This document shows positions 12,772 through 49,499 of a stretch of DNA of 64,000 nucleotides, piece after piece. This DNA is from an uncultured Patescibacteria group bacterium (GTDB taxonomy: Bacteria > Patescibacteriota > Microgenomatia > UBA10105 > UBA927). Made by a program: the position numbers and the translations under genes. The notes below the pieces were generated by a model. The model was not told the origin of the DNA. It ran no database searches and saw only the letters and a list, made by a program, of their open reading frames with translations. Position 1 is the stretch's first letter. The number at the start of each line of letters is the position of its first letter. The stretch lies in assembly GCA_937921305.1 (NCBI GenBank), contig CAKZSU010000007.1, positions 45,330 through 109,329 of the forward strand, given 5' to 3'.

Positions 12772-12823
12772 AGATAAATACCATTCTACAAATCCTCTCT
12801 CTTATATGCTATAATCTAGCTCC

Positions 12824-13171: not shown

Positions 13172-13178
13172 CATCATT

Positions 13179-13520: not shown

Positions 13521-14198
13521 TTACACGCCAAAATTTCGCTTCCTCTTTTGAAATTCTTCAATCGCTTCATCTAAATGATCTGGCGTAAAGTCTGGCATAT
13601 ACCATGACGGAAAATATAATTCACTATACTCGCTTTGCCACAACAAAAATCCTGACAATCTCTGTTCTCCACCTGTCCGAATAATCAAATCAGGATCGGG
13701 AATGCCGGATGTGTCAAGAAAACGCGAAAACTGTTCTGGATCTAGTGTGTTCTTGATGTCATTAGGGATGGCTCGAATCGCGCGAACAATCTCGTCTCTT
13801 CCACCGTAATTTACGGCAAAAATTGTCGTGATCGCGGTATTGTGCTTTGTTATTTCAACAATCTCTTGAAGCCCTTCTTGAATATCGCGATCAAACGCTT
13901 GTATGTCGCCAATAATTTGTATTTTCGCCCCTTTTTCATGAAGTTTCCGCCATTTTGTTGTTATTACCTGACGAAATAATCGCATAATGCCCGATATTTC
14001 TTCTTTTGTCCGTCGCCAATTTTCTGTGGACCATACCCAAAATGTCAGATACCTCACTCCTCGCTTTCCCGCGTGTTCAATAAGAGGACCCAAGATATGA
14101 TCAACAACGCGACGATGTCCTTCAAGAATGGGGAGGTTGTACGCTCTTGCCCACCGCCGATTTCCATCCATGATAATCGCAATATGTGTTGGTATCAT
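13521..14198 (-). CDS. uppS: Undecaprenyl (isoprenyl) diphosphate synthase, cis-prenyltransferase
   Basis: HIAIIMDGNRRWA motif plus RTGGEQRLSGFLLWQSEYSELYF. Confidence 0.9.
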   Translation of the reverse strand: MIPTHIAIIMDGNRRWARAYNLPILEGHRRVVDHILGPLIEHAGKRGVRYLTFWVWSTENWRRTKEEISGIMRLFRQVITTKWRKLHEKGAKIQIIGDIQAFDRDIQEGLQEIVEITKHNTAITTIFAVNYGGRDEIVRAIRAIPNDIKNTLDPEQFSRFLDTSGIPDPDLIIRTGGEQRLSGFLLWQSEYSELYFPSWYMPDFTPDHLDEAIEEFQKRKRNFGV

Positions 14199-14247
14199 AC
14201 TGATTAGAATGTTCTTGGATTATACACAATCGGAATGTATATCGTCT

Positions 14248-15225
14248 CTAAAACAGATGCGTGTTGCTTTGTCTTGCTCCTACTGATGGTGTGTTTATAC
14301 TAATCTGCTTCACATACGGAAGATCTCGAAGAAATGTTTGTAAACGATTTACTGTTTGTTCCTCGCACAGCACATGAATATCTTGGCCGGTATTAAGCGT
14401 GAGGTACACAGGTAATCCTTGCTTTCGCCATGCGTGAATCTGTTTAATAAAAACAATCGTCGCTTCTGTCCAATACACCAACGGAGGCCACGAAGTAAGC
14501 ATAATCGCATGCATCTCAAACGCTTCACGCTCGGCAAGCACACCCAATCGTTCAAAATCTTTCTTCTTTACCGCTTCCTTTGCTTCGCTCAACTTCTGTT
14601 CAATATAATTCATTCGGGCTTCATAGAATACGCTCGTTTCCGCAAGTATTTGTCCTTCTTCGCTTGAAACGGATTTTTTTTCATCGCTGACAATCACAAC
14701 AACATCGTGTAACTTCCAATGCTCGGAAGGATACAGGGAATATGCATAAGATGAATCGCTTGTTGACCCTTTGACCCACTCAACAAACCCGTCAGGAATG
14801 CTTCTTGCGGCAGAGCCAGACCCCTGCCGAGCAAGTATAGAAAGCTCTTGTTCTGAGAGATTCAACGATAAAGCGTCGACCGCGGCTTTTGTCAACGCGG
14901 CGAACCCGGACGCGGATGACGATAATCCCGTACTAGACGGAAATGAATTTTTGCTTACGACTTTTGCCCGAAGATTGGTTTTCGCGATCGCTCGAATTCT
15001 ATCAAGGTGCTTGGAAACACGAGCTGTTGCTTTATCGTGGACAACGCCGTCAATCACCACATCATCTGTTGGATAGGATGAAGAAAATTCAACGGTTGTG
15101 ATTGTATATAACCCGCTTAAATTCATTGAAATGCTTCCGTTTGCCGGAAGTCGCAAGGCTTCATTGCTCTTTCCCCAATACTTAACAAACGCGATGTTTG
15201 ATGGCGCAATCGCAGTCGCTTTCAT
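14248..15225 (-). CDS. mvaD: Diphosphomevalonate decarboxylase
   Basis: NIAFVKYWGK motif plus GLSSSASGFAAL. Confidence 0.85.
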   Translation of the reverse strand: MKATAIAPSNIAFVKYWGKSNEALRLPANGSISMNLSGLYTITTVEFSSSYPTDDVVIDGVVHDKATARVSKHLDRIRAIAKTNLRAKVVSKNSFPSSTGLSSSASGFAALTKAAVDALSLNLSEQELSILARQGSGSAARSIPDGFVEWVKGSTSDSSYAYSLYPSEHWKLHDVVVIVSDEKKSVSSEEGQILAETSVFYEARMNYIEQKLSEAKEAVKKKDFERLGVLAEREAFEMHAIMLTSWPPLVYWTEATIVFIKQIHAWRKQGLPVYLTLNTGQDIHVLCEEQTVNRLQTFLRDLPYVKQISINTPSVGARQSNTHLF

Positions 15226-16133
15226 ACTTCCAGACGAGCTCCTTCTTCATCAAACGCCACGAAAACAACCTCTCCTCCCGCTAAGCGAATGGCTGTTGAG
15301 ATATCTTCTTCCCTCTCTTTTGACACAAGCGCAATCATACAGTCGCCTCTTCCCGCTCCAGAGAGCTTCGCGCCAAACGCACCAGCACGTTTCGCTGCTA
15401 ACACTAATGAATCAAGCTTCTCAGAACTTACTCCAAGCGTTTGCAGAAGCGAATGATGCTCGTCCATCAACTCGCCAAGCCAGGGCATATTGTTTTCTTT
15501 CATCGCCTGTTTTGCCTGCCAAACAATATTTTCCATGCGATTAAAAAGCAAATCTATCTGCTCTGGATGATGATCGCGTTTCTCCGCTACTTCTCTCACA
15601 ATTTCTACTGTGCTTGCCTTCACGCCAGTATACCCAACAATCAGACGGATATCCTTCCATGGCAATGGCTCTATAATTTCTCCCTTATTTTTATAGAGTA
15701 AAGTTCGACCAAACGATGCTGCCGCGACATCAAATCCAGATCCAACCTTCTGAACAGAAAGAACAACATCAAGAGCGAATAAAAACAGTTCTCGATCTGA
15801 AATCGCCCGTGATGTATATGTCGCAAGCGCTTTGATCAGCGCCACTGTCACCGCGGATGACGACCCAAATCCGTATGCGCCGCTAAATGAACTACGAACA
15901 GTAATCCGAATCGATCGCGGAAGACACCACAAAGAAGATACGCGCGATAACACCGCGTGAATAAATGAATGATCGTTCACACCCGGCGTGTCAATACACA
16001 CTTCATTTCTCTCGTATTCCGCTACAGAAACCTCAATGCGCTTGCTTACTGCTGTCACCACACACGGATGACCATACACCACCGCGTGGTCGCCAAAGAG
16101 CATAAGTTTTCCCGGTGCGCTTGCTTTCACCAT
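15222..16133 (-). CDS. GHMP kinase, probably phosphomevalonate kinase (second kinase of the mevalonate pathway)
   Basis: APGKLMLFGDHAVVYG, a GHMP motif GFGSSSA and a GAG motif KLSGAGRGDCMIAL. Confidence 0.65.
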   Translation of the reverse strand: MVKASAPGKLMLFGDHAVVYGHPCVVTAVSKRIEVSVAEYERNEVCIDTPGVNDHSFIHAVLSRVSSLWCLPRSIRITVRSSFSGAYGFGSSSAVTVALIKALATYTSRAISDRELFLFALDVVLSVQKVGSGFDVAAASFGRTLLYKNKGEIIEPLPWKDIRLIVGYTGVKASTVEIVREVAEKRDHHPEQIDLLFNRMENIVWQAKQAMKENNMPWLGELMDEHHSLLQTLGVSSEKLDSLVLAAKRAGAFGAKLSGAGRGDCMIALVSKEREEDISTAIRLAGGEVVFVAFDEEGARLEV

Positions 16134-16149
16134 ACTTATCGCAACTCGT

Positions 16150-17091
16150 TTAGGAGCGCTGCTCGAGTCGAATCCCTTCCTCTCCCAAGATTACAGACTC
16201 CACGTCGTATCCATACGGATTGCACAGTTCCTGTATCCTTGAAGGATCACGATGATAGCATAATAAAAACCCCACCGCGCCTGTTTTTCCTCCGCCTCCT
16301 AAAATTTTCACCGATCCGCCCGCTTCTTCGATCTGACGGATCAATGGAATTACACGATCGCTCACCACTCCGATCTGTTCAAGTGTTCGCTGTCCATGGC
16401 GTATTGCATCGATTAACATTTCTTCGTTTCCCTCCTTGATTGCCTGCGCCACGCGTTTCGTCTGAATTTCATTATCAGAAAGAATATCTTCAAACGTACC
16501 CGGATTTTCATCTCGTTTCATCTTCACCAACGCAACCATCTCTCCTGTTGTTTCGCTTGGGCGACCCGTGTTAATTAGAACAAAATGATTAAGCGTTTGA
16601 GGAAAAGAAAACGGAAATTTCCAAATGCTTCGAAGGAATTCGAATTCCTTGCGAAACCAAATAAACCCGCCAAATGTCACTGTCGTGTTATCTCCTCCTG
16701 ACGGATTGCCGTGTTGCTTTTTTTCCACTTCATACGCAATCTGATTGATCAATTCTGGATTCCAGATCGTTTTCAGGTGGTATATCACCGCGCCAACCGT
16801 CGCGACCGCAATCGCGGCGGAAGAACCAAGATGATAGCCAATCGGAATGCCGGATGATACGATAATACGAACCCCTGGGAGACGATCCTGTCCCAGATGA
16901 TCGCAGGTCACTTGAACTGCGTGGCGAACATATGCTTCTCCTTCTGTCGTTTCAACAGAAAGACCATCTTGAGAAGATTCGAGAGAAACAACAACACGAC
17001 GATTAATCGCGGCAAGAAGCGCTGGTTTTCCATACACGACCGCGTGTTCTCCCATAAGATGCACTTTTCCAGGGGCTGAAACAATGATCAT
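16150..17091 (-). CDS. mvk: Mevalonate kinase
   Basis: APGKVHLMGEHAVVYG, motif PIGYHLGSSAA, ILGGGGKTGAVG. Confidence 0.8.
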   Translation of the reverse strand: MIIVSAPGKVHLMGEHAVVYGKPALLAAINRRVVVSLESSQDGLSVETTEGEAYVRHAVQVTCDHLGQDRLPGVRIIVSSGIPIGYHLGSSAAIAVATVGAVIYHLKTIWNPELINQIAYEVEKKQHGNPSGGDNTTVTFGGFIWFRKEFEFLRSIWKFPFSFPQTLNHFVLINTGRPSETTGEMVALVKMKRDENPGTFEDILSDNEIQTKRVAQAIKEGNEEMLIDAIRHGQRTLEQIGVVSDRVIPLIRQIEEAGGSVKILGGGGKTGAVGFLLCYHRDPSRIQELCNPYGYDVESVILGEEGIRLEQRS

Positions 17092-17390
17092 AGCGGTTTT
17101 ACTTTTACTCCATACGGTATAACGCCATCTGAGGACGGTTCCATGACCCGACGAAGGACAACAACAACCCGCTGTCCGATGCGAAGCGTTGTTTCGTTGT
17201 GATCAACAACCTGTGCAGTAATCGTTTCCCCGTTATCCAACGCGACCACCGCGATAGGATACGGCGCAAAGGATGAAAATCCCTGTGGTGGCACGTGAAT
17301 CATCGTCCATGTTACAATCGCTCCTTCTTGACCAAGGAGACGACGAATGCGTTTTTGATTTCTCCACACTTTTACTGGCGATTGGTGCAT
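17088..17390 (-). CDS. DUF35 OB-fold protein, partner of archaeal-type thiolase and HMG-CoA synthase. The start is uncertain; the ORF track extends to 17546 and overlaps the thiolase.
   Basis: MHQSPVKVW...GAIVTWTMIHVPPQGFSSFAPYPIAVVALDNGETITAQVVD...IGQRVVVVLR, typical of the DUF35 OB fold. Confidence 0.6.
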   Translation of the reverse strand: MHQSPVKVWRNQKRIRRLLGQEGAIVTWTMIHVPPQGFSSFAPYPIAVVALDNGETITAQVVDHNETTLRIGQRVVVVLRRVMEPSSDGVIPYGVKVKPL

Positions 17391-18526
17391 AAAATATGAA
17401 CCACGGCGGTAGCGCCCGATCCTCCCACATTGTGTGTCAGACCATATCGAGCGTTCGGTACTTGCCGTTTTCCCGCTGATCTTCGCAATTGTTCCACGAT
17501 TTCGACAAGTTGCTTCACACCGGTCGCCCCAACAGGATGCCCGCACCCCTTGAGCCCACCAGAAGAATTCACCACACGATCAAAGTCTCCATCAAGTCTC
17601 GTTTTTCCCTCTTCGATGGCTTTCGCCGCCTTTCCTTTTTCATAGATTCCTAAATCTTCCATAGCTAAAATTTCCGCTATCGTAAAACAATCATGAACTT
17701 CTAATACCTGAATATCTTTTGGCAAAATACCCGCTTGGGTATACGCTTTTTTTGCGGCGATTCGCGTCGCGCGCAATTCATCAAGAGACGATCGCCTCGC
17801 GATATCTAATGTATCCGTCGCAACAGAACTTGCGAGCACCTGAATGGCATGAATCGGGTGCGATGGCTTTGATGTAATAATCACCGCGGAAGCGCCGTCG
17901 GATATCGGCGAACAATCCAAGAGATGCAATGGGTCTGCAACCATGCTGCTTTGTAACACCTTTTCAACCGTAAGAAGATTCTTAAATTGGGCGTTTGGAT
18001 TCATACTCGCGTGAAAATGGTTTTTTACCGCGACAGACGCAAGCTGCTCTTGCGTTGTGCCGAATCGATGCATGTGAACTCGCGCAAGAAGCGCGTAAAG
18101 CGCAGGAAATGTTGCGCCGCTCATCCGTTCTTCGTCGCTCCCAGCACCTGCAAGCGCTGCTGACACATCTTCGGGCTTATGATCGGTCATTTTTTCAACA
18201 CCAAGAACGCACACTGTCGTATATTGCCCGGAAAGAACGCTCAGAATCGCCATGTGCGCAGCCAACCCGCCTGACGCGCACGCGCCTTCAACCTTAAACG
18301 CCGGAACATGCATGCCAAGCGAATCGGAAAAAAACGCGCCAAGATGCTCCTGCCTTCCCAACATCCCGGAAAGCATGTTGCCAACAAAGAGCGCTTCAAT
18401 ATTGTTCTTTTCTATCCCTGCGTCGCGAATCGCGCGATTAACAACATCGTTTGCAAGCGATCTGGGAGATACGTCCCATAATTCTCCAAACGGCGTGGTC
18501 GCGACTCCGGCAATATATACATTCAT
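17372..18526 (-). CDS. Archaeal-type thiolase (acetyl-CoA acetyltransferase, SCP-x-like)
   Basis: KVEGACASGGLAA and C-terminal GLTHNVGGSGATAVVHIL. Gene order thiolase-DUF35 with HMGCS adjacent. Confidence 0.8.
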   Translation of the reverse strand: MNVYIAGVATTPFGELWDVSPRSLANDVVNRAIRDAGIEKNNIEALFVGNMLSGMLGRQEHLGAFFSDSLGMHVPAFKVEGACASGGLAAHMAILSVLSGQYTTVCVLGVEKMTDHKPEDVSAALAGAGSDEERMSGATFPALYALLARVHMHRFGTTQEQLASVAVKNHFHASMNPNAQFKNLLTVEKVLQSSMVADPLHLLDCSPISDGASAVIITSKPSHPIHAIQVLASSVATDTLDIARRSSLDELRATRIAAKKAYTQAGILPKDIQVLEVHDCFTIAEILAMEDLGIYEKGKAAKAIEEGKTRLDGDFDRVVNSSGGLKGCGHPVGATGVKQLVEIVEQLRRSAGKRQVPNARYGLTHNVGGSGATAVVHILCTNRQ

Positions 18527-18529
18527 ACG

Positions 18530-19573
18530 TTATATATTCCTTGTCAGTTGTAAATAGGAAACATAATCAACAGTAACACCGTGATTGATCTGCCATTCTA
18601 CTGTTTCTTGTTCATTTTGTTTGCGCCTAAATGCATCGATATGATCCGTAACTTGCCACAAAAACGCGTCGCTCCCGGCGCCTGATCCATACGATATCAT
18701 CATAATCGTTTCTCTGGGGCGCACCTGATCAAGCGTCGCGGCGAACCCAAGCAATGAGGATGCAGAATACGGATTTCCAATGCGATCAACCGTCAGTGAA
18801 TGACGAAGTTGATCATCTCGAAACCCCAACCGTTTTGCCGCTTCTCGAGGAAACTTTCCATTCGGCATATGAAACACGCAATAAGTAACATCAGATGGCT
18901 GAATGTTTGCCAATAAAAAAAGTCGCTTGGCAGAACCAAGCACATGAGCGAAATACGCAGGTTCGCCAGTAAATCGTCCTGCGTGCGATGGGTACCTGAT
19001 GCTTTCTCTTCGCCAAAAATCTGGAGTATCTGAAGAATATGATGTATACGCAAGAAGATTCGCAATCAATGGATATCGATCGTCTCTCCCCATGAGCACC
19101 GCGACAGACGCAGCAGCAGAAGCATACTCTAGTACATCGTGCGGTCTACTTTGCGCGGTATCAGACCCAATCGCAAGACCCATCGAAATATGACCAGACG
19201 ACAATAACCCAGCAGTTGCTTGCATGCCAGCTGTCCCAGCTTTGCACGCGAATTCAAGATCGCTTGCCAGATACTGATTGCCAACACCTAAAAATTCCCC
19301 GACAATCGTCGCCGTTGGATTGACCGCGTACGGATGGCTTTCCGAACCAACAAAAATCGCTTCTATATCCGACGGATTGTAGCCTTGGATCGCTCGAAGA
19401 GACGCTTCAACAGCAAGCGTCACCGCATCTTCGTCTCTTCCAGCGATAGATTTCTCTTTAACTCCTAAAGAAGTCTCAACTTCTCGAGTCGACTTTTTCC
19501 AAACGCGACTTATCTCTTGCGTTGATATTCGATATCGCGGAATATACGCTCCGTATTGAATAATCCCAATCAT
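18530..19573 (-). CDS. mvaS: Hydroxymethylglutaryl-CoA synthase
   Basis: MIGIIQYGAYIPRYRI, catalytic Cys context LEFACKAGT, 347 aa. Confidence 0.85.
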   Translation of the reverse strand: MIGIIQYGAYIPRYRISTQEISRVWKKSTREVETSLGVKEKSIAGRDEDAVTLAVEASLRAIQGYNPSDIEAIFVGSESHPYAVNPTATIVGEFLGVGNQYLASDLEFACKAGTAGMQATAGLLSSGHISMGLAIGSDTAQSRPHDVLEYASAAASVAVLMGRDDRYPLIANLLAYTSYSSDTPDFWRRESIRYPSHAGRFTGEPAYFAHVLGSAKRLFLLANIQPSDVTYCVFHMPNGKFPREAAKRLGFRDDQLRHSLTVDRIGNPYSASSLLGFAATLDQVRPRETIMMISYGSGAGSDAFLWQVTDHIDAFRRKQNEQETVEWQINHGVTVDYVSYLQLTRNI

Positions 19574-20727
19574 ATCTTTTTCCCTCGAGCGAGTCGCTCG
19601 TGCGCTTGAGCCAGTGTTCCCTGTGCCAACGACGCAAGAAGAGAAAGTTCTCCAGCGAGGACAGCGCTACCGATAATCCCCGCGAGTTTCTTTGCGTTAT
19701 TGCCGTCTTTTCCACCTAAAACACCAAGCAAAGAAAGCGCTTCACTCTGAGTTGGCAAACTCGTTCCGCCTCCCACTGTTCCCACAAGAAGCGATGGCAA
19801 ATAGACACTTATGTATAGATCGCTTTCTTTGTGATTGTTCGTATCTACTTCTGTCGTAGTTATGCCATTACTTCCTTCGACCACATGCGCCGGATCTTGC
19901 CCGGTTGCGATAAACATCGCCGCAACGATATTCGCGTACTGCGCGTTATACCCCATAGACCCAACCAACGCGCTCCCGACCATGCATTTCGCAAGCCATG
20001 TCTCATAAATCGCTTGTGCGGAAACCTTCAGCGTAGACGAAAGAATCATTGATTGAATCGTCGCTTCAGCCCGAACCGCAAATCCCCGTTGAGAAATCGC
20101 GTTGATCCAAGCCGGCTTTTTGTCCACACAGACATTGCCAGACACCGCGACACACGATATACCAAGTTGTTCGTTGATATATGAGCACAACGCGTCAGTG
20201 GCAATTGTCACCATATTAAGACCCATCGCGTCTTGTGTGTCAAAAACAAATCGAACATAGCGATACTTTCCAACTCCTAGATATTCATATGACACAAGCG
20301 TTAAATGATGCGATGTTGACGAAGCAACTTCTTGCAACACAGAAAACCGCTCTGAAAGAAACCGCTCAAGCCGTTTCCCTTCTTCAAGAGAACGCACGCG
20401 AAACGCTGGTCCCCTTGTTGCTCCAACTCGCTCCACTTCAACAACCGCTCCCCCGCTTTCCGTAATTGCCTTACACCCGCGATTGACCGACGCAACAAGC
20501 ACTCCCTCTGTTGTTGCCAACGGCAGATAGTATGATTCTCCTTGTATCAGCAACGGACCGGCAACCCCAAGAGGAATTTGCGCAACACCAATCATATTTT
20601 CACAATGACGCGTTGACGCAATCTGCTCATCTACACTATACGATCCGATATGACGAAGCGAAATGCCTCTTGCTCCTTCTAACGCGTTTCTCCGATCTTT
20701 TACTGATTGATACTGACGAAGATTCAT
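19570..20727 (-). CDS. mvaA: HMG-CoA reductase (class I-like catalytic domain)
   Basis: ENMIGVAQIPLGVAGPL...LATTEGVLVASVNRGCKAI... Confidence 0.85.
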   Translation of the reverse strand: MNLRQYQSVKDRRNALEGARGISLRHIGSYSVDEQIASTRHCENMIGVAQIPLGVAGPLLIQGESYYLPLATTEGVLVASVNRGCKAITESGGAVVEVERVGATRGPAFRVRSLEEGKRLERFLSERFSVLQEVASSTSHHLTLVSYEYLGVGKYRYVRFVFDTQDAMGLNMVTIATDALCSYINEQLGISCVAVSGNVCVDKKPAWINAISQRGFAVRAEATIQSMILSSTLKVSAQAIYETWLAKCMVGSALVGSMGYNAQYANIVAAMFIATGQDPAHVVEGSNGITTTEVDTNNHKESDLYISVYLPSLLVGTVGGGTSLPTQSEALSLLGVLGGKDGNNAKKLAGIIGSAVLAGELSLLASLAQGTLAQAHERLARGKKI

Positions 20728-21359
20728 AAAAATGGCACGCGAAACACTCCGACGCGATACATCACAACACTGTATATTACCATAAACGGAATAATCACTA
20801 TGGACACGCCAACGCTTCTTATCAAATCAACCTGCAACCCAAATCGCAAAGTCAAATAGTATAGCTCAGCTTTCCAAAACAACAACACTGAACTTACGAC
20901 AAGATAGAGAAAACTAAATACAATACCCAATACTGTTTCTGTTCGTGGCGGCGGGATAAGAAGATAAGAAAGTGATGCAAAGAAAAACCATGCAACTGTT
21001 GGAATCAACGTGTACCCCCACGCGATCGCCAATCCTTTCATAAGGCGTCGTTTCCGAAGGAACACCGAACACACCCAAAGCAAAAGAACAACCACTGCAT
21101 ATCCAAGAAATGCTCCTGTTAATAGGATAATAAAGTGTTTTGTCAGTAAAAACGGACGAAACGATTCTGCTTTTATCAGGGAGGCCAACGCAAAATATGC
21201 TGAGCAAACACACCAGACAAACAACAATTCGCCTGTTTTTCCTCTTTCAACAATCGTCCTATAGGTCGAATAGGGAGCATACGCAATGCCAATAATATGC
21301 TTTGAAAATGACAAAAAACTAACAGAAATATAGGTAAGCGCGTTTGAAAGAAGATGCAT
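20724..21359 (-). CDS. Polytopic membrane protein (Yip1-like or DUF), hypothetical
   Basis: 211 aa with five or six hydrophobic helices. Confidence 0.4.
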   Translation of the reverse strand: MHLLSNALTYISVSFLSFSKHIIGIAYAPYSTYRTIVERGKTGELLFVWCVCSAYFALASLIKAESFRPFLLTKHFIILLTGAFLGYAVVVLLLWVCSVFLRKRRLMKGLAIAWGYTLIPTVAWFFFASLSYLLIPPPRTETVLGIVFSFLYLVVSSVLLFWKAELYYLTLRFGLQVDLIRSVGVSIVIIPFMVIYSVVMYRVGVFRVPFL

Positions 21360-21382
21360 GACACTATAGTCGAATCAATACG

Positions 21383-21613
21383 TTAAAACCCGCGTTGAAG
21401 AACGCTAACAAGCGTAGCTATGTCTGAACCAAACACAAGATATATTCCAAAAACAAACAAAATACTGACTATTGTTATCGCTGGCCACGGCATGACTTTT
21501 AATCGCTTTGTGATTTCTTTATAAAACGGCGTAAACGGCCCGACGCGTTGCGGCGGGAGCTCTGTCACTTCTTCCCAGTGCTTGACAAGCTTTTCATAGA
21601 GAACATCGCTCAT
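21383..21613 (-). CDS. Putative membrane-anchored anti-sigma factor
   Basis: Small protein immediately downstream of, and overlapping, the ECF sigma gene. It has a single C-terminal transmembrane helix (PWPAITIVSILFVFGIYLVF). Confidence 0.45.
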   Translation of the reverse strand: MSDVLYEKLVKHWEEVTELPPQRVGPFTPFYKEITKRLKVMPWPAITIVSILFVFGIYLVFGSDIATLVSVLQRGF

Positions 21614-22139
21614 AGGCTTGAATAAACGCTTTTCTTGCTCGAAACAACCGAGACTCAGCACTTTTGAAGCTTAGTCGAAGCATCTTCGCGATATCCTCCA
21701 CTGATCGTCCTTCAATATATTTATACACCAAAATTTCTTTATAACGCGGTAATATTTCGGAAAAAACGCGGGAAATTTTTTCTCGAACTAATGTTTCATC
21801 CAACGACTCTTCCGGACGCAAAAGCGGCGACATCAATTGTTCTAACTGCGGAAGTTGCGAAAACACAACATGTTTTATTTTCTTTTTTCTATAAAAATCA
21901 ATAATTTTATGCTGACAAATAGAAAATAAAAATGTTTTTACGCTTGACTTTCCATGAAAATCTCGAAGCGCTTCGATAAACGCGAAAAGCGCATCCTGAA
22001 GAATCTCTTCACAATCTGACTCTTTGTCCACTCGCTTTCGTATAAACGCAAGAAGTTTTTCTTTGTACCGATGATAAAATATATAAAGCGCTCGCTCGTC
22101 ACGACGAAGAATTCTCTCTACAAGTTGCGCGTCATCCAT
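21594..22139 (-). CDS. ECF-type RNA polymerase sigma factor (sigma-70 regions 2 and 4)
   Basis: LVERILRRDERALYIFYHRYKEKLLAFIRKRV (region 2) and ILVYKYIEGRSVEDIAKMLRLSFKSAESRLFRARKA (region 4). Its start is 29 bp from the divergent pilin gene. Confidence 0.8.
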   Translation of the reverse strand: MDDAQLVERILRRDERALYIFYHRYKEKLLAFIRKRVDKESDCEEILQDALFAFIEALRDFHGKSSVKTFLFSICQHKIIDFYRKKKIKHVVFSQLPQLEQLMSPLLRPEESLDETLVREKISRVFSEILPRYKEILVYKYIEGRSVEDIAKMLRLSFKSAESRLFRARKAFIQAYERCSL

Positions 22140-22168
22140 AGTATAATTGTATATTATAAAATAAAAGC

Positions 22169-22492
22169 ATGGAAAAAGTGTTTGCGCTTTCAACAACAAT
22201 CGGCGATCATATCACACCATTTTCTCCCGCACAAACATTTCCAAATATCGCAAGTCTTGTTGGTGTCATTACCTCAAACGCTTTTTTTATTGCAGGTGTT
22301 ATCGCGTTTATATTTATGATCGTAGGAGGATTTGGTATAATAATGTCTAGTGGCGATCCAAAAAAAATAGAACAAGGGAAAAATACGTTAACAATGGCAA
22401 TTATAGGATTCCTTGTCATTGTTTTCTCTTTTTGGATTGTTCAACTCATTGAATTATTGATAGGTGCAAATCCATTACAACTGTACCAATAA
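22169..22492 (+). CDS. T4SS pilin-like protein (CPR VirB2/TrbC-like family), paralog 1 of 4 in tandem
   Basis: AFIFMIVGGFGIIMSSGDPKKIEQGKNTLTMAIIGFLVIVFSFWIVQ. Confidence 0.65.
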   Translation: MEKVFALSTTIGDHITPFSPAQTFPNIASLVGVITSNAFFIAGVIAFIFMIVGGFGIIMSSGDPKKIEQGKNTLTMAIIGFLVIVFSFWIVQLIELLIGANPLQLYQ

Positions 22493-22501
22493 AAAGCTTA
22501 T

Positions 22502-22867
22502 ATGAAAGTATTCGCTGGAACAACTGATACTGATGTTGTAGGAAAGATTGAAAATAAAGTTTTAAACCCCTATGGGGATATCACAAATTCATCCGGCGGA
22601 CTTGGGCTTCTTATAACGAATTTTCTTCGCCTCTTCTTTGTTATTGCAGGAATTTTTGCATTTCTTAATTTTATTCTTGCAGGATTCCAATACATTACTG
22701 CGGAAGGAGATCCAAAAAAACTTCAACAGGCATGGAATAAAATCTGGCAATCACTCCTTGGTCTTGTTATTATGGTCATCTCATTCGCATTAGCTGCAGT
22801 GTTTGGACATCTTATATTTGGTGATCCATTATTCATGTTGCAACCAAAAATTTATACACCATTGTAA
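22502..22867 (+). CDS. T4SS pilin-like protein, paralog 2
   Basis: FLNFILAGFQYITAEGDPKKLQQAWNKIWQSLLGLVIMVISFALAAV. Confidence 0.65.
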   Translation: MKVFAGTTDTDVVGKIENKVLNPYGDITNSSGGLGLLITNFLRLFFVIAGIFAFLNFILAGFQYITAEGDPKKLQQAWNKIWQSLLGLVIMVISFALAAVFGHLIFGDPLFMLQPKIYTPL

Positions 22868-22888
22868 TTTATCTTATTATAAGATAAT

Positions 22889-23296
22889 ATGATCATAGAA
22901 AAAATTTATGCTGGACAAAAAAATTTAGGAGCGAGAATAGGAGGCGAAGGACTAGGTCCATTTGCTCAAGTAAGTAACGCGGTAGAAGGATTAAAAAATG
23001 TGACAAGCGCAATATCGTCGATCATTGGAGTTATGACTATTGCAGCGGGAATCTGGTTTATTTTTTACTTTATTATCGGTGGAATACAGTGGATAAATTC
23101 TGGAGGAGATAAAAACGCCTTAGAACAAGCTAGAAACAAAATTACAAATGCTTTTATCGGTCTTATTATTGTTGTTTCTGGTATAACCATACTATCATTA
23201 GTAAGCGTATTTCTTGGATTTGATTTTCTTATTACAAATCCAGAATCAGTTATCAATATATTATTTCCAAAGCAAAATATTCCAACAATAAGATAA
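22889..23296 (+). CDS. T4SS pilin-like protein, paralog 3
   Basis: IWFIFYFIIGGIQWINSGGDKNALEQARNKITNAFIGLIIVVSGI. Confidence 0.65.
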   Translation: MIIEKIYAGQKNLGARIGGEGLGPFAQVSNAVEGLKNVTSAISSIIGVMTIAAGIWFIFYFIIGGIQWINSGGDKNALEQARNKITNAFIGLIIVVSGITILSLVSVFLGFDFLITNPESVINILFPKQNIPTIR

Positions 23297-23334
23297 GATA
23301 CACCTAAAAATAGCAACATAGTAATAACTACACT

Positions 23335-23706
23335 ATGACAATCATGATACAAAAAAAAATTTTTGCTCAAATTCATGTTCCAGGTCTCCCGGACGCGTTA
23401 GGCGGAGGGAAAAATATTTCAACAAACTTTGGATTGACTTCAGCGGGGAACATCATTAGAGGACTTATTAATGCATCTCTTATTATCGCAACGCTTGGCG
23501 CTCTTATATATCTCGTCGTTGGAGGTCTTCAATGGATAACAGGCGGAGGCGATAAGACTCAACTTGAAAATGCAAGAAACAAAATAACAAGCGCGATTAT
23601 TGGTTTGATTATTGTAGCGTCCGCTTGGGCAACATGGATTCTTGTTGGAAACTTTCTTGGAATTAATGTCCAAGAACTCCCATTCCCAACAATTAGCGGG
23701 AATTAA
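23335..23706 (+). CDS. T4SS pilin-like protein, paralog 4
   Basis: LIYLVVGGLQWITGGGDKTQLENARNKITSAIIGLIIVASAWA. Confidence 0.65.
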   Translation: MTIMIQKKIFAQIHVPGLPDALGGGKNISTNFGLTSAGNIIRGLINASLIIATLGALIYLVVGGLQWITGGGDKTQLENARNKITSAIIGLIIVASAWATWILVGNFLGINVQELPFPTISGN

Positions 23707-23775
23707 GATTTTCAAAAGACTTGCTTTGCAAAACAATGCGTTTAGTATAAAATAGGACTTATTTACTCTACTGCC

Positions 23776-23843
23776 GCGGGGTGGTGTAGAGACGCACAGG
23801 AGGCTCATAATCTCCTAGACCGGGCGCGACTCCCGGCCCCGCA
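23776..23843 (+). tRNA. tRNA-Met-like (anticodon CAU) with non-canonical architecture: 68 nt, a single nucleotide at positions 8/9, a 3-bp D-stem and a 4-bp T-stem
   Basis: Acceptor GCGGGGU/GCCCCGC (7 bp), anticodon stem GGAGG/UCUCC, loop CUCAUAA, T-arm CGGG-CGCGACU-CCCG, discriminator A. The alternative 5' start at 23773 does not pair. Confidence 0.45.
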
Positions 23844-23853
23844 ACATAATTAT

Positions 23854-23926
23854 GCCAAGGTAGCTCAGTGGTAGTAGCACACGCTTCATAAGCGTGGGGT
23901 CGTGGGTTCGATCCCCACCCTTGGTA
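23854..23926 (+). tRNA. tRNA-Met(CAU), elongator-type or possibly tRNA-Ile2
   Basis: Acceptor GCCAAGG/CCUUGGU (G1-U72 wobble), anticodon stem CACGC/GCGUG, loop UUCAUAA, T-arm GUGGG-UUCGAUC-CCCAC. Confidence 0.8.
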
Positions 23927-23948
23927 CATTCTAAAAATTCTCCTAATT

Positions 23949-24338
23949 TTATCTTCCGAAGAATATCATAATCCATTGTGTTATTGGTGAAATATTTCTT
24001 TGATTACTCAGTTCTTCTCTCTCAACATCACCGATAGCGCTTGGTTGTTCATTATGAATATAGACAACATGTTCTCCAATTTTCATCAAGCCCAACTTAT
24101 TTCTTGCCTCTTGTTCAATAAAAACATCAGTTTGAGCATACGCGATATCATGTTTTAACGCGTCTCTTGTTGCTTCCACCTGTCGCAACCGCTGTTCTTC
24201 TTGATACACCTTGCTCTTTTTTTGAATAAGTTGATAAGAAGAGAAAATTGACTGAAAGAAAACAAAGCAACTGATAAAAAAAATCAAAACTCTTGTTATT
24301 CCCCTGAAAAGGGAGTAATCATTTTCATTTTTTGTCAT
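23949..24338 (-). CDS. Septum formation initiator family protein (FtsB/DivIC-like)
   Basis: N-terminal transmembrane helix, a coiled coil, and FIEQEARNKLGLMKIGEHVVYI. Confidence 0.6.
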   Translation of the reverse strand: MTKNENDYSLFRGITRVLIFFISCFVFFQSIFSSYQLIQKKSKVYQEEQRLRQVEATRDALKHDIAYAQTDVFIEQEARNKLGLMKIGEHVVYIHNEQPSAIGDVEREELSNQRNISPITQWIMIFFGR

Positions 24339-24416
24339 GTGATTTTTTCTTGTTTTGTACCTCTTTTTATGTTATTATAGGATTTTAAAATATACTTAAT
24401 ACATTATTCAAATACT

Positions 24417-25277
24417 ATGAATGACATCCGTGATTATCTTAAAACATTTCAAGATCATCTTATCGCGAAAAAGCGAGCAAAAGCAACCATCATCGCATAC
24501 ACAAAAGACATTGAACAATTTATTTTATTCCTCTCTCATGTAGAAAAAACAGATATTCATAGAATCACCAAAGATGAAATTGACGCATTTTTAAAAAAAC
24601 TCTCCCATGACAACTACACTCCAAAATCAATTTCAAGAAAAATCAATTCCATAAAAACATTCTTTCGCCATATTAAACTTCAGGGACATATTAGCGTTGA
24701 CCCGTCTCAAGGCATCACTCATCCAAAATACGATAGTAAACCTCCTAGAATTCTTTCAAAACTGGAATATCGCGCGCTTCGGGACACCTGCAGGCAAGAT
24801 ATTCGAACCTACGCAATTGTTGAGCTTCTTCTTCAAACGGGCATGCGCATAGGAGAAATCCCGCTATTAACCCTTGGGGACATTAGCGAAGATACATTGC
24901 ATATTTCAAGACATGAAGGACATGAAGAACGAACTGTTCCTTTAAATAAAAAAGCAAAAGACGCAATCAAACAATACTTAGAAATTAGATCGGGTTCAAG
25001 AGAAAAAACCGCCCCGCTTTTTATTACAAAATCAGGAAAACCACTCCTTGTTCGCAACATTCGAACCTCGATTGATCGATACTTTAAGCTCGCGGGAATC
25101 GAAGACGCAAAGGTAAACGACCTTCGCCACACCTTTATCGCGCATCATCTCATAGCTGGAACACCGCTCACCGCAATTTCAAAACTTGTTGGTCACAAAC
25201 GATTGACGACAACAGAAAAGTACCTCTCTTTTATAAAAGAGAAAAATCCAGAAGTAAGCAAACTAGAAGAGCTTTGA
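24417..25277 (+). CDS. Tyrosine site-specific recombinase (XerC/XerD family)
   Basis: C-terminal catalytic block LRHTFIAHHLIAGTPLTAISKLVGHKRLTTTEKYLSF (R..H...Y). 286 aa, flanked by tRNA genes. Confidence 0.75.
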   Translation: MNDIRDYLKTFQDHLIAKKRAKATIIAYTKDIEQFILFLSHVEKTDIHRITKDEIDAFLKKLSHDNYTPKSISRKINSIKTFFRHIKLQGHISVDPSQGITHPKYDSKPPRILSKLEYRALRDTCRQDIRTYAIVELLLQTGMRIGEIPLLTLGDISEDTLHISRHEGHEERTVPLNKKAKDAIKQYLEIRSGSREKTAPLFITKSGKPLLVRNIRTSIDRYFKLAGIEDAKVNDLRHTFIAHHLIAGTPLTAISKLVGHKRLTTTEKYLSFIKEKNPEVSKLEEL

Positions 25278-25861: not shown

Positions 25862-25865
25862 GGAG

Positions 25866-25938
25866 TGCGTCCGGAAGGACTCGAACCTTCGACACGTTGT
25901 GTATAAGACAACTGCTCTACCAACTGAGCTACGGACGC
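25866..25938 (-). tRNA. tRNA-Ile(UAU)
   Basis: Canonical cloverleaf GCGUCCG-UA-GCUC-AGUUGGUA-GAGC-A-GUUGU-CUUAUAC-ACAAC-GUGUC-GAAGG-UUCGAGU-CCUUC-CGGACGC-A. The anticodon loop is C-U-UAU-A-C. Confidence 0.8.
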
Positions 25939-28342: not shown

Positions 28343-28756
28343 TCATGCATGATCCGCATGTTTTCTCAAGACTTTTGCATGAACGATATGAATTTGACGG
28401 ACACACCACTCCGCAAGCCAACGAATAGAATCTGCAATGCTTTCATGAAGAGCTTTTGCAATCTGTTCATCTGTAAGCGGAAGATGAATAACTGATGATG
28501 ATTGAATGTTGACTGGCGCATGATGACCAACCGCCTGTACACCCGCCTGCGCTATTTGCGGAGGAACACTTGTCGCTTGAGGGATAACCTGAACACCTGC
28601 TGAAACAACTTCTTTCGGCAATTCTATTTCTTGACTTACTGGCTTTAATGGAAGCTCTGATGACTGAACCGATACCGGTTCTCCCTCTTTTCCGCCATTC
28701 ATGGAGGCGCACTGAGGATTATGCTGTGATTGGTTGATTTGCTGGGGATCTATCAT
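28343..28756 (-). CDS. Hypothetical protein (Gln/Pro/Val-rich), within the VirD4 operon
   Basis: 137-aa ORF between the 758-aa protein and virD4-like gene. No motif recognised. Confidence 0.35.
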   Translation of the reverse strand: MIDPQQINQSQHNPQCASMNGGKEGEPVSVQSSELPLKPVSQEIELPKEVVSAGVQVIPQATSVPPQIAQAGVQAVGHHAPVNIQSSSVIHLPLTDEQIAKALHESIADSIRWLAEWCVRQIHIVHAKVLRKHADHA

Positions 28757-30995: not shown

Positions 30996-31228
30996 ATGTT
31001 ACTCCCATAAAAAAACCTTCTCATCTCGAGAAGGCACAAAAACCACATTGCAAGCATAAACCACATAAAGCGAATCTTTTTAACTCTTATACTTGCAAGC
31101 TATGACAATTCTCCTGCTCGGGATGAATTACATACGGGGAGTTCCGGACTTTACCGTTGCGGCACAGTCTCTGAATTTCACAGAGTTCCTCGATCCGTAT
31201 GGGTAAAATTGGTATATTCTGTCAAAAT

Positions 31229-46826: not shown

Positions 46827-47192
46827 ATGAATATTATTCAAAAAATATTAGCACAAAATCAACAAACACAACTTAATAAGGGATCGACGATAATAGGTAT
46901 AAATCAACCAGAAAATTTTAAAGTTTCTGATGTTGGAACAGCAATAAAAAATGTTATAAATGCCTCGCTTGTCATAGCAGCTTTAGTTGCTTTTATTTAT
47001 CTCATTTTGGGGGGAATTCAATGGATAACATCTGGAGGAGACAAATCAGCAATGGAATCGGCAAGGAACAAAATTACCCAAGCCATAGTTGGACTTATCA
47101 TCGTTGCGGCGGCATACGCAGTAATGAATCTTGTGTCTTCATTCTTAGGTCTGAACATCACTAACTTAGATATAGGAAATATTTATAAATAA
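46827..47192 (+). CDS. T4SS pilin-like protein, close paralog of 22889..23296 and 23335..23706
   Basis: FIYLILGGIQWITSGGDKSAMESARNKITQAIVGLIIVAAAYAVM. There is a strong RBS, AGGAGG. Confidence 0.65.
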   Translation: MNIIQKILAQNQQTQLNKGSTIIGINQPENFKVSDVGTAIKNVINASLVIAALVAFIYLILGGIQWITSGGDKSAMESARNKITQAIVGLIIVAAAYAVMNLVSSFLGLNITNLDIGNIYK

Positions 47193-47414
47193 ATCATCAT
47201 AAGTAAAGATAACAAAAAAAAATTTTAAATTATAAGTATAAGTTGCAACGATTTATAACAAAATAGACTATTTGCAATTAAAATCATCTAGATGTACATA
47301 GTTAATAGTTCAAGCTCATTAATTATAGAGAGTGAAGGATAACTAATTTATGGATTTTTCCATATCTCATATTCGATTGTAATGAAAGTGTGATTTTTCC
47401 CAGATTTTGTTTTA

Positions 47415-47445
47415 CTAATCTCTTTAAAAATCTAATCTCTTTAAA
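47415..47445. promoter_or_regulatory. 14-nt direct repeat (ctaatctctttaaa, two copies) immediately upstream of the second locus-B pilin gene
   Basis: Seen directly in the sequence at 47415-47428 and 47432-47445. Confidence 0.4.
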
Positions 47446-47455
47446 GATAAATAAA

Positions 47456-47878
47456 ATGAGAACAAGATTGTTCATAACATTTCTTTTTGTCACTATTCTT
47501 TTTTTCATAGAAACAAAAACTAAAGCGTATGCCAACTCAACCTGGGAAAATTGCTTATATGATGGTGCCGCAACGATTCAATGCTTTGTTCCCCTTTTTG
47601 GAAGCATTGTTACAGCAATCGTCCAAATCGCCGGCGTTGCACTATTTATTATGTTTATAATATCTGGATATAACTTTTTAATGTCAGGAGGAAATCCAAA
47701 ACAACTGGAACAAGCAAAAAATACATTAACTTATGCTATAATAGGAGTTGTTGTTATTGTAAGCGCATACCTTATTTTGCTTATCATAGGACAATTTACT
47801 GGTGTAGATGTGACACGATTTGAAATACCAGACAGACTAAATGATTCCTCAAGGACACAAACCAACAAAGTAATCTAA
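47456..47878 (+). CDS. T4SS pilin-like protein with signal peptide. The ORF track starts it at 47390.
   Basis: VQIAGVALFIMFIISGYNFLMSGGNPKQLEQAKNTLTYAIIGVVVIVSAYLILL. Confidence 0.6.
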   Translation: MRTRLFITFLFVTILFFIETKTKAYANSTWENCLYDGAATIQCFVPLFGSIVTAIVQIAGVALFIMFIISGYNFLMSGGNPKQLEQAKNTLTYAIIGVVVIVSAYLILLIIGQFTGVDVTRFEIPDRLNDSSRTQTNKVI

Positions 47879-47885
47879 GTAATCC

Positions 47886-49499
47886 ATGTATTGTTTTATG
47901 AAACAATCAATGAATTATTCAAAAGAAAAGAAAGGATATAAAAAAACAATCATCTGTGGTTTTCTTTCACTTGTTAACCCCACATGTATAAGCGAAGTAA
48001 TGGAGTATCTTTTCAAGAAGACATCGTCATTAAAATTCACTTTTCTACTTACCCTACTTGCACTAACCATCTTTGTATTGGCAAGACAACATGTTGTTTA
48101 TGGTTGGGCATTTATCACGACAAAAGACTATACAGAAAACATGAAACAAACGATAAACGGACAAATTAATGGAGAAGGGTCGGGAACATTCTTTCCTCTT
48201 GTCCAAATCGCGGCGATAAATTGCGCTATGACATCATTCGAAAAAGATGGGAAGAATGGAAGCGGATATTGTCCAGAAAATTTAAAAAGTTTGGGGTTAA
48301 TTCCTAGCATCGCAAGGATTAATGATTCTTTTTATCACGCGCCGCCAGCAAATTTAGCGCTATGGATCAAAGACACCGCAACAACGCTAGGATTGATACC
48401 AAAATCAGCGTACGCGCAACAAGGCATTGGATTTAGCGGAATGCAACCACTTCTTGATATCTGGAAAGCGTTTCGAAATCTTGCGTATGCTTTATTATCG
48501 TTGGCTATTGTCGTTGTCGGTTTTATGATTATGTTTAGAAAAAAAATTGACCCACAGACCGTCGCATCGATACAAGAAGCTCTTCCAAGAATTATTATAG
48601 CGCTCATTCTAATAACATTCTCGTACGCGATTGTGGGGTTGTTTATAGACTTAATGTATGTAATCATATTTGTTATTTATCAAATATTCACCGCGTCTGG
48701 GATTATCAGCATGGAAACAATAAGCAAACTCCAGAGTATTCGAATAAGCATTTTTGGCATCCCTATTTCCACACAAGGAAGACCACTTCAGCAAGTTATC
48801 CTTAATGGCGACATAAGAGAAGTGTTTGCCACAGTATTTCCAGCGGGAATGAATGATTTATTTACAATTGGATCGCAAATCCTTAATGATGGACAAAATC
48901 CTATCAATGCAATTATTTTCGGAACAATTGGAGGATTGTTGCTTGGAGTGATTCTCAATATTCTTCTTTTAATACTTATGATTAGACTCTTTGTTATGTT
49001 TTTAGCCGCTTATCTCCAGATCGTCTTTCAGCTTATCTTTGGGCCATTATATATTCTTTCAGATGTTCTACCAGGGAGTAACAACACAAGCACGTGGATT
49101 AAAAACCTTATCGCAAACTTATCTGTCTATGTCGTATCAGCAACAGTATTCCTTCTCGCAATCGCATTTCATTCGCGAACAGGGTACTTTTCTGGACAAA
49201 TTTATGAATATAACTCAACATATGGGAAAGAATTATGGATTCCTCCATATACGAGTATAATGCCAACATTTAGCAGCGTGAGCGCGCTATTCACTATTGG
49301 GGTTCTCTTCCTTCTTCCAAGCATTGTAAAACAATTTAAAGAGGGAATTAAATCCACTGGGGGAATGAACCCCGCATCGGGAATTGGAGGAGGACTGTCT
49401 TTAGCCTACAATTCTGCTCTTCAAATTGGTCTTGTGGCAGCCAACTTCTTTAGAAGAGGAGAAAGAGGCGCTGGCAGAGGCGGTGGCGAACAACACTAA
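47886..49499 (+). CDS. Polytopic inner-membrane protein, VirB6/TrbL-like T4SS channel component
   Basis: 537 aa with at least eight transmembrane helices and a Gly-rich C-terminal tail. It sits immediately downstream of the pilin genes. Confidence 0.5.
   Translation: MYCFMKQSMNYSKEKKGYKKTIICGFLSLVNPTCISEVMEYLFKKTSSLKFTFLLTLLALTIFVLARQHVVYGWAFITTKDYTENMKQTINGQINGEGSGTFFPLVQIAAINCAMTSFEKDGKNGSGYCPENLKSLGLIPSIARINDSFYHAPPANLALWIKDTATTLGLIPKSAYAQQGIGFSGMQPLLDIWKAFRNLAYALLSLAIVVVGFMIMFRKKIDPQTVASIQEALPRIIIALILITFSYAIVGLFIDLMYVIIFVIYQIFTASGIISMETISKLQSIRISIFGIPISTQGRPLQQVILNGDIREVFATVFPAGMNDLFTIGSQILNDGQNPINAIIFGTIGGLLLGVILNILLLILMIRLFVMFLAAYLQIVFQLIFGPLYILSDVLPGSNNTSTWIKNLIANLSVYVVSATVFLLAIAFHSRTGYFSGQIYEYNSTYGKELWIPPYTSIMPTFSSVSALFTIGVLFLLPSIVKQFKEGIKSTGGMNPASGIGGGLSLAYNSALQIGLVAANFFRRGERGAGRGGGEQH

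Follow-up and report, generated by a model that had tools for sequence, protein, structure and literature searches.

Introduction

CnrY of Cupriavidus, a class II anti-sigma factor, is a very short single-pass membrane protein with a cytoplasmic part of about 45 residues, which works with a third membrane-anchored protein in the CnrH-CnrY-CnrX system of CnrH, a sigma factor of the extracytoplasmic function (ECF) type. In Bacillus subtilis, SigM together with the membrane anti-sigma complex YhdL-YhdK responds to the levels of undecaprenyl-phosphate (UndP) (PMC11081497). Arrays of VirB2-like pilin genes of type IV secretion systems (T4SS; PF18895/PF04956) have been described in Patescibacteria, where 441 arrays of 2-11 genes were reported, most abundant in Microgenomatia and Saccharimonadia and with a mean identity of 25% and a maximum of 54% (Microb Genom 2025, PMC12102498); that study makes no mention of a sigma factor, finds VirB6 to be scarce in Microgenomatia, and suggests versatility or roles resembling antigenic variation for the arrays. 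Here we analyse a locus at which genes reminiscent of all these systems meet. It lies in a 64-kb stretch of DNA (hereafter the window; contig CAKZSU010000007.1) from a bacterium of the Microgenomatia, a group of the Candidate Phyla Radiation (CPR), close to Woese-/Gottesmanbacteria, and it consists of four tandem pilin genes transcribed divergently from the gene of an ECF-type sigma factor.

To our knowledge, almost no gene regulation has been characterised in CPR/Patescibacteria, and this locus bears on the open question of how such tiny epibionts handle their envelope and the apparatus by which they contact their hosts. A search of the literature on ECF sigma or anti-sigma factors in Patescibacteria returned nothing on this locus. 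The pilin array is a known kind of feature and its presence here is ordinary; what appears to be undescribed is the wiring of the sigma factor to a 76-residue membrane protein, a Yip1-domain protein and the mevalonate pathway, together with the positional orthology of the array and its terminal VirB6-like gene. An original prediction, made from the sequence of the window, held that the sigma factor places pilin expression under the control of an envelope signal. We propose instead, with a probability of roughly 55%, that the sigma module controls the supply of the isoprenoid/undecaprenyl-phosphate carrier through the Yip1, mevalonate and UppS genes and is not a dedicated pilin switch, the pilins being read by the housekeeping sigma factor.

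Results

The sigma factor and its conserved neighbours

The description of the sigma factor as ECF-type (group 4) and not housekeeping is borne out by the protein itself, which has regions 2 and 4 only and a TIGR02937 (sigma70-ECF) score well above the cut-off (Table 1), and whose closest solved sequences in the Protein Data Bank (PDB) are all ECF sigma factors, namely SigH, SigW, RpoE and CnrH. Its orthologs are about 60% identical in more than 100 Patescibacteria proteins. Using an alignment of the sigma factor, we retrieved 80 loci of 16 kb from species-level genomes (locus counts run to 82; individual loci are numbered with the prefix L), in which genes were identified by open reading frame (ORF) calling and HMM/phmmer searches. 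The gene order in these relatives is constant: the pilin array is divergent from the sigma gene, which is followed by the gene of the 76-residue protein (82/82 loci), the Yip1 gene (80/82) and the gene of 3-hydroxy-3-methylglutaryl-CoA (HMG-CoA) reductase (73/82).

The pilin array is directly adjacent and divergent to the sigma gene in 68 of the 79 loci with enough upstream flank to be counted (86%), and an arrangement that recurs to this extent is not due to chance. In the other 11 loci the two are separated by an offset, by an insertion (about 1 kb in some) or by loss (L045, L062, L013, L038, L059, L063, L066, L069, L074, L034 and L082). As a control we considered the junction beyond the pilin operon, which is conserved in 51 of 54 loci. 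We therefore rejected synteny as proof of a coupling between sigma factor and pilins: collinearity is general in these genomes, so adjacency is not evidence for co-regulation.

The original prediction had placed a membrane ORF across the 3' end of the sigma gene. Both its membrane character and the overlap (20 nt) stand, but its start is the ATG at 21613 and not the GTG at 21661, which would give 92 residues, because it is the shorter version that has orthologs in 82 of 82 loci. The protein comprises about 41 cytoplasmic residues, one transmembrane helix and a tail of about ten residues that ends in LQRGF; its orthologs are 72-80 residues long (mostly 76-78) and share the pattern Y.KFVKRWEEVTDLPPQT.GPLTP.YK..RLKVMPWP. 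The start of the gene overlaps the sigma stop codon in 33 of 81 loci, in 22 of these as a 4-nt ATGA, and the protein is a candidate anti-sigma factor that may be translationally coupled to the sigma factor. Neither the 92-residue nor the 76-residue version gave any Pfam or NCBIfam match at E <= 0.1, anti-sigma domain profiles (zf-HC2/RsrA-like, RskA, CnrY-like and others) included.

A conserved ECF-like motif points into the Yip1 and mevalonate genes

The junction between the 76-residue protein gene and the Yip1 gene carries a motif, GCG(C/A)GGGTTTTA-N11-13-(t)(a/c)CGACTA or in short GCGGGTTTTA-N11-13-CGACTA, located 7-12 nt before the Yip1 ATG. We scanned the 82 loci and the window with a two-block position weight matrix (PWM). 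The loci contain 66 sites of at least 14 bits, of which 58 lie at this junction, one between the Yip1 and HMG-CoA reductase genes (L081) and two upstream of the sigma gene; none was found on the pilin side in any of the 82. Only one site turned up in the window (CGAC at 21372, minus strand); it scores 30.3 bits against a maximum of 22.0 bits in 20 shuffles, and in front of each of the nine pilin genes of the window even the best score is negative.

In the window the upstream half of the motif is formed by the last codons (R-G-F-stop) of the 76-residue protein gene, and the same is true of relatives with short spacers. Where spacers are longer, as in about 28 loci, the upstream half recurs as a separate copy beyond the stop codon, its distance from CGACTA unchanged, and the motif is therefore conserved as DNA. 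The position of the motif changes in 13 loci of a distant clade, which have no spacer at the junction: here CGAC[TAC][AT] occurs 7-20 nt before the sigma ATG together with a TGAAAC/GGAAAC/TGATTT-like upstream element. An ECF-type promoter in front of the sigma gene itself is the classic layout of ECF autoregulation. Neither the window nor most Gottesmanbacteria have such a promoter of the sigma gene's own, and a sigma-70-type TGnTATAGT/TATAAT is found in its place.

Several loci also have a strong GC hairpin with a U-tract directly before CGACTA. A terminator at this position would isolate the downstream genes from read-through from the sigma gene, which indicates that the Yip1 and mevalonate genes need a promoter of their own. 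In six loci (L034, L055, L021, L045, L043 and L014) the hairpin has a dG of -18 to -30 kcal/mol, and both its 3' arm and its U-tract fall on the -35-like half of the motif, so that terminator and promoter element appear to share the same bases.

The genes that the motif faces are tightly packed. The Yip1 gene of the window overlaps that of HMG-CoA reductase by 4 nt, and the junctions farther along the string down to UppS are overlaps or gaps of at most 49 nt. The match of the window's Yip1 protein to its family is weak (Table 1), and six of eight orthologs exceed the PF04893 cut-off.

Two further observations concern this gene string. At 17088-19573 (minus strand) it groups the genes of HMG-CoA synthase, thiolase and an OB-fold (DUF35/ChsH2_C) protein, a trio that we take to be typical of archaeal-type first steps of the mevalonate pathway. 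At its UppS end, the string is convergent with 11515-13514 (plus strand), which encodes a 418-residue protein with a C-terminal pilin domain followed by two pilin paralogs; the same arrangement occurs in L061 and L072, and pilin genes thus flank the mevalonate block on both sides.

CGACTA also occurs once within the sigma coding sequence of the window (minus strand, 21660-21690, in the LRLS codons; cttCGACTAagc), about 80 nt before the stop codon, and the PWM gives 19 bits at the same spot of L003 (+462). The match probably arises by coincidence from the codons, but it could be an internal start for the 76-residue protein gene.

A predicted sigma-70-type promoter of the pilin operon in relatives

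The pilin strand of the relatives carries TTGACA-N17/18-TACACT, a promoter of the sigma-70 type. We counted 39 instances of a strict version, TTGAC-N17-19-TACA[CA]T, in 2.25 Mb of sequence, 33 of them on the pilin strand within the spacer between sigma and pilin genes. TA[CT]ACT precedes the ATG of the first pilin gene in 48 of 69 loci at a modal distance of 6 nt, which implies a leaderless pilin mRNA; from the type of promoter, the housekeeping sigma factor most likely transcribes the pilin operon. On the opposite strand, most Gottesmanbacteria have TGnTATAGT as the promoter of the sigma gene, the same type of extended -10 as in the tRNA promoters of the window, so that pilin and sigma promoters are both sigma-70-like and overlap back-to-back.

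The spacer between the sigma gene and the first pilin gene has a median length of about 68 bp in the relatives; in L003 and the window it has contracted to 29 bp. Within these 29 bp, where no ECF-type motif was found, lie two inverted boxes 5 nt apart, TATAAT at 22142-22147 (plus strand) and ATTATA at 22153-22158 (TATAAT on the minus strand). The minus strand also has a sigma-70-like match, TTTCCA-N18-TACAAT at 22175-22146, which would give a leaderless sigma mRNA. A simple scan for promoters and terminators over 21000-24400 stayed at background level (11 found, 11.4 expected).

A search for AAC/CGT-type elements before the pilin genes at 22169, 46827 and 12824, as the original prediction had proposed, was negative, and no ECF-type promoter was found upstream of any pilin gene, whether among the nine of the window or in the 82 loci. 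For the generic ECF consensus [GT]AA[CT]-N15-18-CGT, 131 matches would be expected in the window and 80 were found. The lone generic match before pilin 1, GAAT-N17-CGT at 22109-22132, was rejected, as it lies within codons 3-10 of the sigma gene, is of a kind that chance would produce roughly every 1.6 kb, and persists in just 8 of 81 loci. We also rejected GGGAAT...CGTCAAT as an ECF promoter on the sigma strand: its spacing is 11 nt, and the distance of GTCAAT is fixed relative to AGTGTA and not to the sigma -10, so GTCAAT is the pilin -35 (TTGAC) read on the other strand. The proposed control of the pilins by the sigma factor in response to an envelope signal thus finds no support in these promoters; the conserved pilin promoter of the relatives is of the sigma-70 type, and the conserved ECF-like motif points into the Yip1-mevalonate-UppS genes.

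A model for the locus and its alternatives

We interpret the locus as the junction of two conserved divergent units of Microgenomatia genomes. The rightward unit would be a T4SS pilus-module operon that is most likely read by the housekeeping sigma factor into a leaderless mRNA. The leftward unit opens with the ECF sigma factor and its translationally coupled anti-sigma candidate, and the 76-residue membrane protein, possibly together with Yip1, would hold the sigma factor. Upon a membrane signal, the sigma factor would read the CGACTA promoter in the last codons of the anti-sigma gene and so express Yip1, the mevalonate pathway and UppS, by which the module would tune the supply of carrier lipid. 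Several points weigh against this interpretation. All promoter assignments come from sequence patterns, and the scans cover 64 kb of the genome and the 16-kb loci, which leaves room for a pilin-linked site elsewhere or for indirect control. The ECF-like motif is without AAC in most loci and differs from the textbook AAC/CGT, and the spacing assigned to it varies with the choice of -35; the upstream half falls on conserved codons or on a terminator U-tract and may not be a -35 at all, and another sigma factor of the genome could read CGACTA. The 76-residue protein matches no known anti-sigma domain. Finally, the 29-bp spacer of the window has lost the canonical pilin promoter of the relatives.

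In the view closest to the original prediction, an envelope signal frees the sigma factor from a membrane anti-sigma factor, and the sigma factor then directly switches on the divergent pilin operon. Head-to-head adjacency is indeed kept in 68 of 79 loci although the sigma factors diverge by about 50%, ECF sigma factors can control the subunits of surface fibres (BldN with chaplins and rodlins; PMC6101532), and the GAAT-N17-CGT match does lie upstream of pilin 1. However, that match lies in sigma codons, is of chance frequency and is kept in few loci, the adjacency is conserved no better than the next junction, the conserved pilin promoter is TTGACA/TACACT, and the ECF-like motif is missing from the pilin side of all loci and from the upstream regions of the nine window pilins, all of which makes direct activation highly doubtful. 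The opposite extreme, that there is no regulatory link and the genes are only collinear neighbours, with CGACTA read by another factor or being a terminator next to an unrelated element and the targets of the sigma factor lying elsewhere, is favoured by the junction past the pilin operon, which is kept in 51 of 54 loci, by the 11 of 79 loci that tolerate offset, insertions or loss between sigma factor and pilins, and by GCGGGTTTT, which in several loci forms the 3' side of an intrinsic terminator. It accounts poorly for the spacing between GGGTTTT and CGACTA, which is fixed at 11-13 nt even with a long spacer, and for the move of the motif to a position ahead of the sigma gene in the distant clade, which is hard to explain unless the motif belongs to this sigma factor; we consider the absence of any link unlikely.

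Coupling could also arise from promoter architecture, if RNA polymerases at the overlapping pilin and sigma promoters exclude one another, so that pilus synthesis and sigma/anti-sigma synthesis are reciprocal without the pilin promoter being recognised by the ECF sigma factor. The median 68-bp spacer holds two complete promoters, each with its -35 inside the spacer of the other, the pilin -35 (TTGAC) is 5 nt from the extended -10 of the sigma gene (TGnTATAGT) in many loci, and the inverted TATAAT boxes of the window are equally close. Overlap is nevertheless not required, since some loci have longer, non-overlapping spacers (e.g. L012, L017 and L057) or insertions of about 1 kb, and genomes as small as these normally have compact spacers; we regard this explanation as quite improbable. 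A broader version of the favoured reading, in which the sigma module controls carrier supply, would combine several of these elements: a lineage-specific three-part sensor (the ECF sigma factor, a new type of 76-residue anti-sigma factor and Yip1) would act as an isoprenoid/undecaprenyl-phosphate homeostat that drives the mevalonate-UppS operon, as an open loop in Gottesmanbacteria-type genomes including the window, where the promoter follows the anti-sigma gene, and under autoregulation in the distant clade, and it would be interlocked with the T4SS pilus operon by the overlapping divergent promoters such that lipid-carrier supply and pilus production are coordinated. We offer this combination tentatively and think it somewhat unlikely in its entirety.

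Comparison with SigM and CnrH systems

Like SigM with YhdL-YhdK, the module described here would combine an ECF sigma factor with a small membrane anti-sigma factor and a second membrane protein, here the 76-residue protein and Yip1 heading the mevalonate-UppS genes, as judged from gene content. There is no detectable sequence relationship of the 76-residue or the Yip1 protein to YhdL or YhdK, and the proposed target differs from that of SigM in being the synthesis of the carrier lipid (mevalonate, UppS) and not recycling or peptidoglycan (PG) flux genes. If the proposal is true, a sigma module wired to mevalonate-UppS genes by a defined motif would give the CPR a regulatory circuit that can be assayed and that may be analogous to the UndP homeostasis of SigM. 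The resemblance to the Cnr system lies in the sigma factor, CnrH being among its closest solved sequences (E 5e-13); in contrast, the 76-residue protein has no Pfam or PDB sequence match, and the third protein is a Yip1 protein with five transmembrane segments and not a periplasmic metal sensor.

The four pilins are members of an ancient six-gene array

The gene calls and coordinates of the tandem pilin genes, the sigma gene and the 29-bp gap hold in the ORF list and the sequence. All four pilins exceed the gathering cut-off of PF18895 (T4SS_pilin; 26.6 bits), from which we classify them as VirB2/TrbC-like type IV secretion pilins and not as type IV (PilA) pilins. In NCBIfam the four have sub-threshold similarity to the "pilin-like conjugal transfer protein" of a mycoplasma integrative and conjugative element (ICE). 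The window has nine PF18895 genes in all, and of the five beyond the tandem four, four exceed the cut-off and the fifth, the 418-residue protein, falls below it (25.4 bits). Hydropathy indicates two hydrophobic helices in each of the four pilins, and an AlphaFold2 (AF2) model of pilin 2 is a two-helix hairpin (residues 33-66 and 71-106) with a pLDDT of 76 (about 90 in the core). A Foldseek search of the hairpin against the PDB gave no match at E <= 0.001, and a conjugative pilin (8dft) appeared only at E = 5; a fold as simple as this hairpin is not discriminating.

Pairwise identity among the four pilins is 29-47%. The shared motif that had been described for them, GG.QWI..GGD...E.ARNKIT.A.IGLIIV, is exact only in pilins 3 and 4 and the 46827 gene, pilins 1 and 2 matching it loosely, and it was one position short, the right spacing being GGD....E.ARNKIT. 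The array of the relatives usually comprises six genes (p1-p6) on one strand. In six-gene arrays p1 retrieves p1 in 1784 of 1806 comparisons, the other positions behaving similarly, and each position forms an orthogroup across species (43 or more genomes) with its own conserved N-terminal signature. The four genes of the window correspond to p1-p4, and the genes at 46827 and 47390 to p5 and p6. The p6 protein probably starts at an internal Met near 47456, and its N-terminus then resembles a signal peptide.

The gene after p6 in the window, and in 58 relatives, encodes a 537-residue protein with seven hydrophobic segments by hydropathy. It has no Pfam match, and a PDB sequence search with its profile was empty. 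The top seven Foldseek PDB matches of its AF2 model (pLDDT 73) are all TrwI/VirB6 chains of R388; these are its only consistent structural matches, and they are marginal (E 5e-3 to 0.15, probability 0.92-1.0; TM 0.27/0.46 at E 5e-3). One ortholog is labelled "Type IV secretion system protein" in UniRef. The recurrence of this gene after p6, together with the orthology of p5 and p6, indicates an ancestral operon of six anciently diverged VirB2-like paralogs and a VirB6-like gene, and gene order points to a split of the array after p4 in the lineage of the window; the closest relative, L003, still carries six pilins. Two tRNA-Met genes (23775-23927, plus strand) now follow pilin 4.

The paralogs of the window resemble the published Patescibacteria arrays in Pfam family, tandem layout and low identity, and differ from them in the stability of the six positions as orthogroups and in the VirB6-like gene that closes the array. 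The earlier proposal of antigenic or functional diversification is thus retained in its functional part only: the pilins are positionally orthologous ancient paralogs, which speaks against antigenic variation, and fixed position-specific orthogroups next to a VirB6-like gene argue for a multi-subunit structure. The 537-residue protein is accordingly a candidate for the "missing" VirB6 of Microgenomatia. With TrwL/TrwI (VirB2-VirB6) of the R388 T4SS (PDB 7o3v, 8rt9) the locus shares two-helix hairpin pilins encoded beside a polytopic VirB6-like protein; it differs in having six pilin paralogs instead of one, with no VirB5 or VirB4 recognised beside them. Of the T4SS machinery near the pilins, the window contains the VirB6-like protein and two VirD4/TraD-like ATPases, and no VirB4 was recognised there.

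The break point of the ancestral array is marked by the tRNA pair and a Xer-type tyrosine recombinase gene (24417-25277). According to ARAGORN the two adjacent tRNAs have CAT anticodons, and only the second reaches the Rfam tRNA threshold. The region upstream of p5 (46700-46826, plus strand) differs from those of the other window pilins, which have no Shine-Dalgarno sequence: it has a GGAGG Shine-Dalgarno and a TTGACT-N17-TATCAT about 60 nt upstream.

Table 1 Predicted features of the sigma-pilin locus and related genes in the window.
Feature	Position	Strand	Evidence or remark
Packed co-directional genes: HMG-CoA reductase, HMG-CoA synthase, thiolase, OB/DUF35 protein, two GHMP kinases, diphosphomevalonate decarboxylase, UppS	13521..20727	-	Pfam
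Yip1-domain polytopic membrane protein (211 aa, 5 hydrophobic segments)	20724..21359	-	window protein weak, E 0.008
ECF-type promoter-like motif CGCGGGTTTTA-N12-CGACTA	21367..21395	-	7 nt upstream of Yip1-like ATG
Single-pass membrane protein (76 aa), anti-sigma candidate	21383..21613	-	directly downstream of sigma in 82/82 loci
ECF-type (group 4) sigma factor (181 aa)	21594..22139	-	Sigma70_r2 and Sigma70_r4_2 only; TIGR02937 84.7 vs 42.9 bits
Divergent intergenic region, 29 bp, AT-rich	22140..22168	.	between sigma ATG 22139 and pilin ATG 22169
VirB2-like T4SS pilin 1 (107 aa), p1 ortholog	22169..22492	+	PF18895 38.7 bits; position p1 best match in 68 other loci
VirB2-like T4SS pilin 2 (121 aa), p2 ortholog	22502..22867	+	PF18895 33.8 bits; p2 best match in 66 loci
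VirB2-like T4SS pilin 3 (135 aa), p3 ortholog	22889..23296	+	PF18895 30.5 bits; p3-specific N-terminal signature IGGEGLGPF
VirB2-like T4SS pilin 4 (123 aa), p4 ortholog	23335..23706	+	PF18895 34.7 bits; p4 commonest best match
Relocated pilin, p5 ortholog (121 aa)	46827..47192	+	PF18895 36.9 bits; best matches p5, median 59.6% identity
Relocated pilin, p6 ortholog	47390..47878	+	PF18895 44.5 bits; best matches p6
VirB6-like polytopic membrane protein (537 aa)	47886..49499	+	last gene of the putative ancestral pilin operon; after p6 in 58 relatives

Other features of the window

The two VirD4/TraD-like ATPases are paralogs of about 750 residues, encoded at 25975-28323 and 52654-54840 (both minus strand), with DUF87, TrwB_AAD_bind and TraG-D_C domains; DUF8128 is among the precomputed matches of the first, and a 975-residue protein without Pfam matches (49689-52616) adjoins the second. 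The gene of the first belongs to a three-gene string with that of a 758-residue protein without a Pfam match (28719-30995) and a 137-residue ORF. An AdoCbl-II (cobalamin) riboswitch (31132-31200, minus strand; 45 bits against a gathering threshold of 36.5) lies between this string and the gene of a PduO-type cobalamin adenosyltransferase (31229-31792), and a B12 riboswitch ahead of a protein of this kind and a T4SS-type ATPase is unexpected. ARAGORN further predicts a tRNA-Ile with the anticodon TAT (25865-25938, minus strand), which is unusual for bacteria. A full-length tmRNA, absent from the ARAGORN output, was found with Rfam at 6438-6870 (minus strand; 95 bits).

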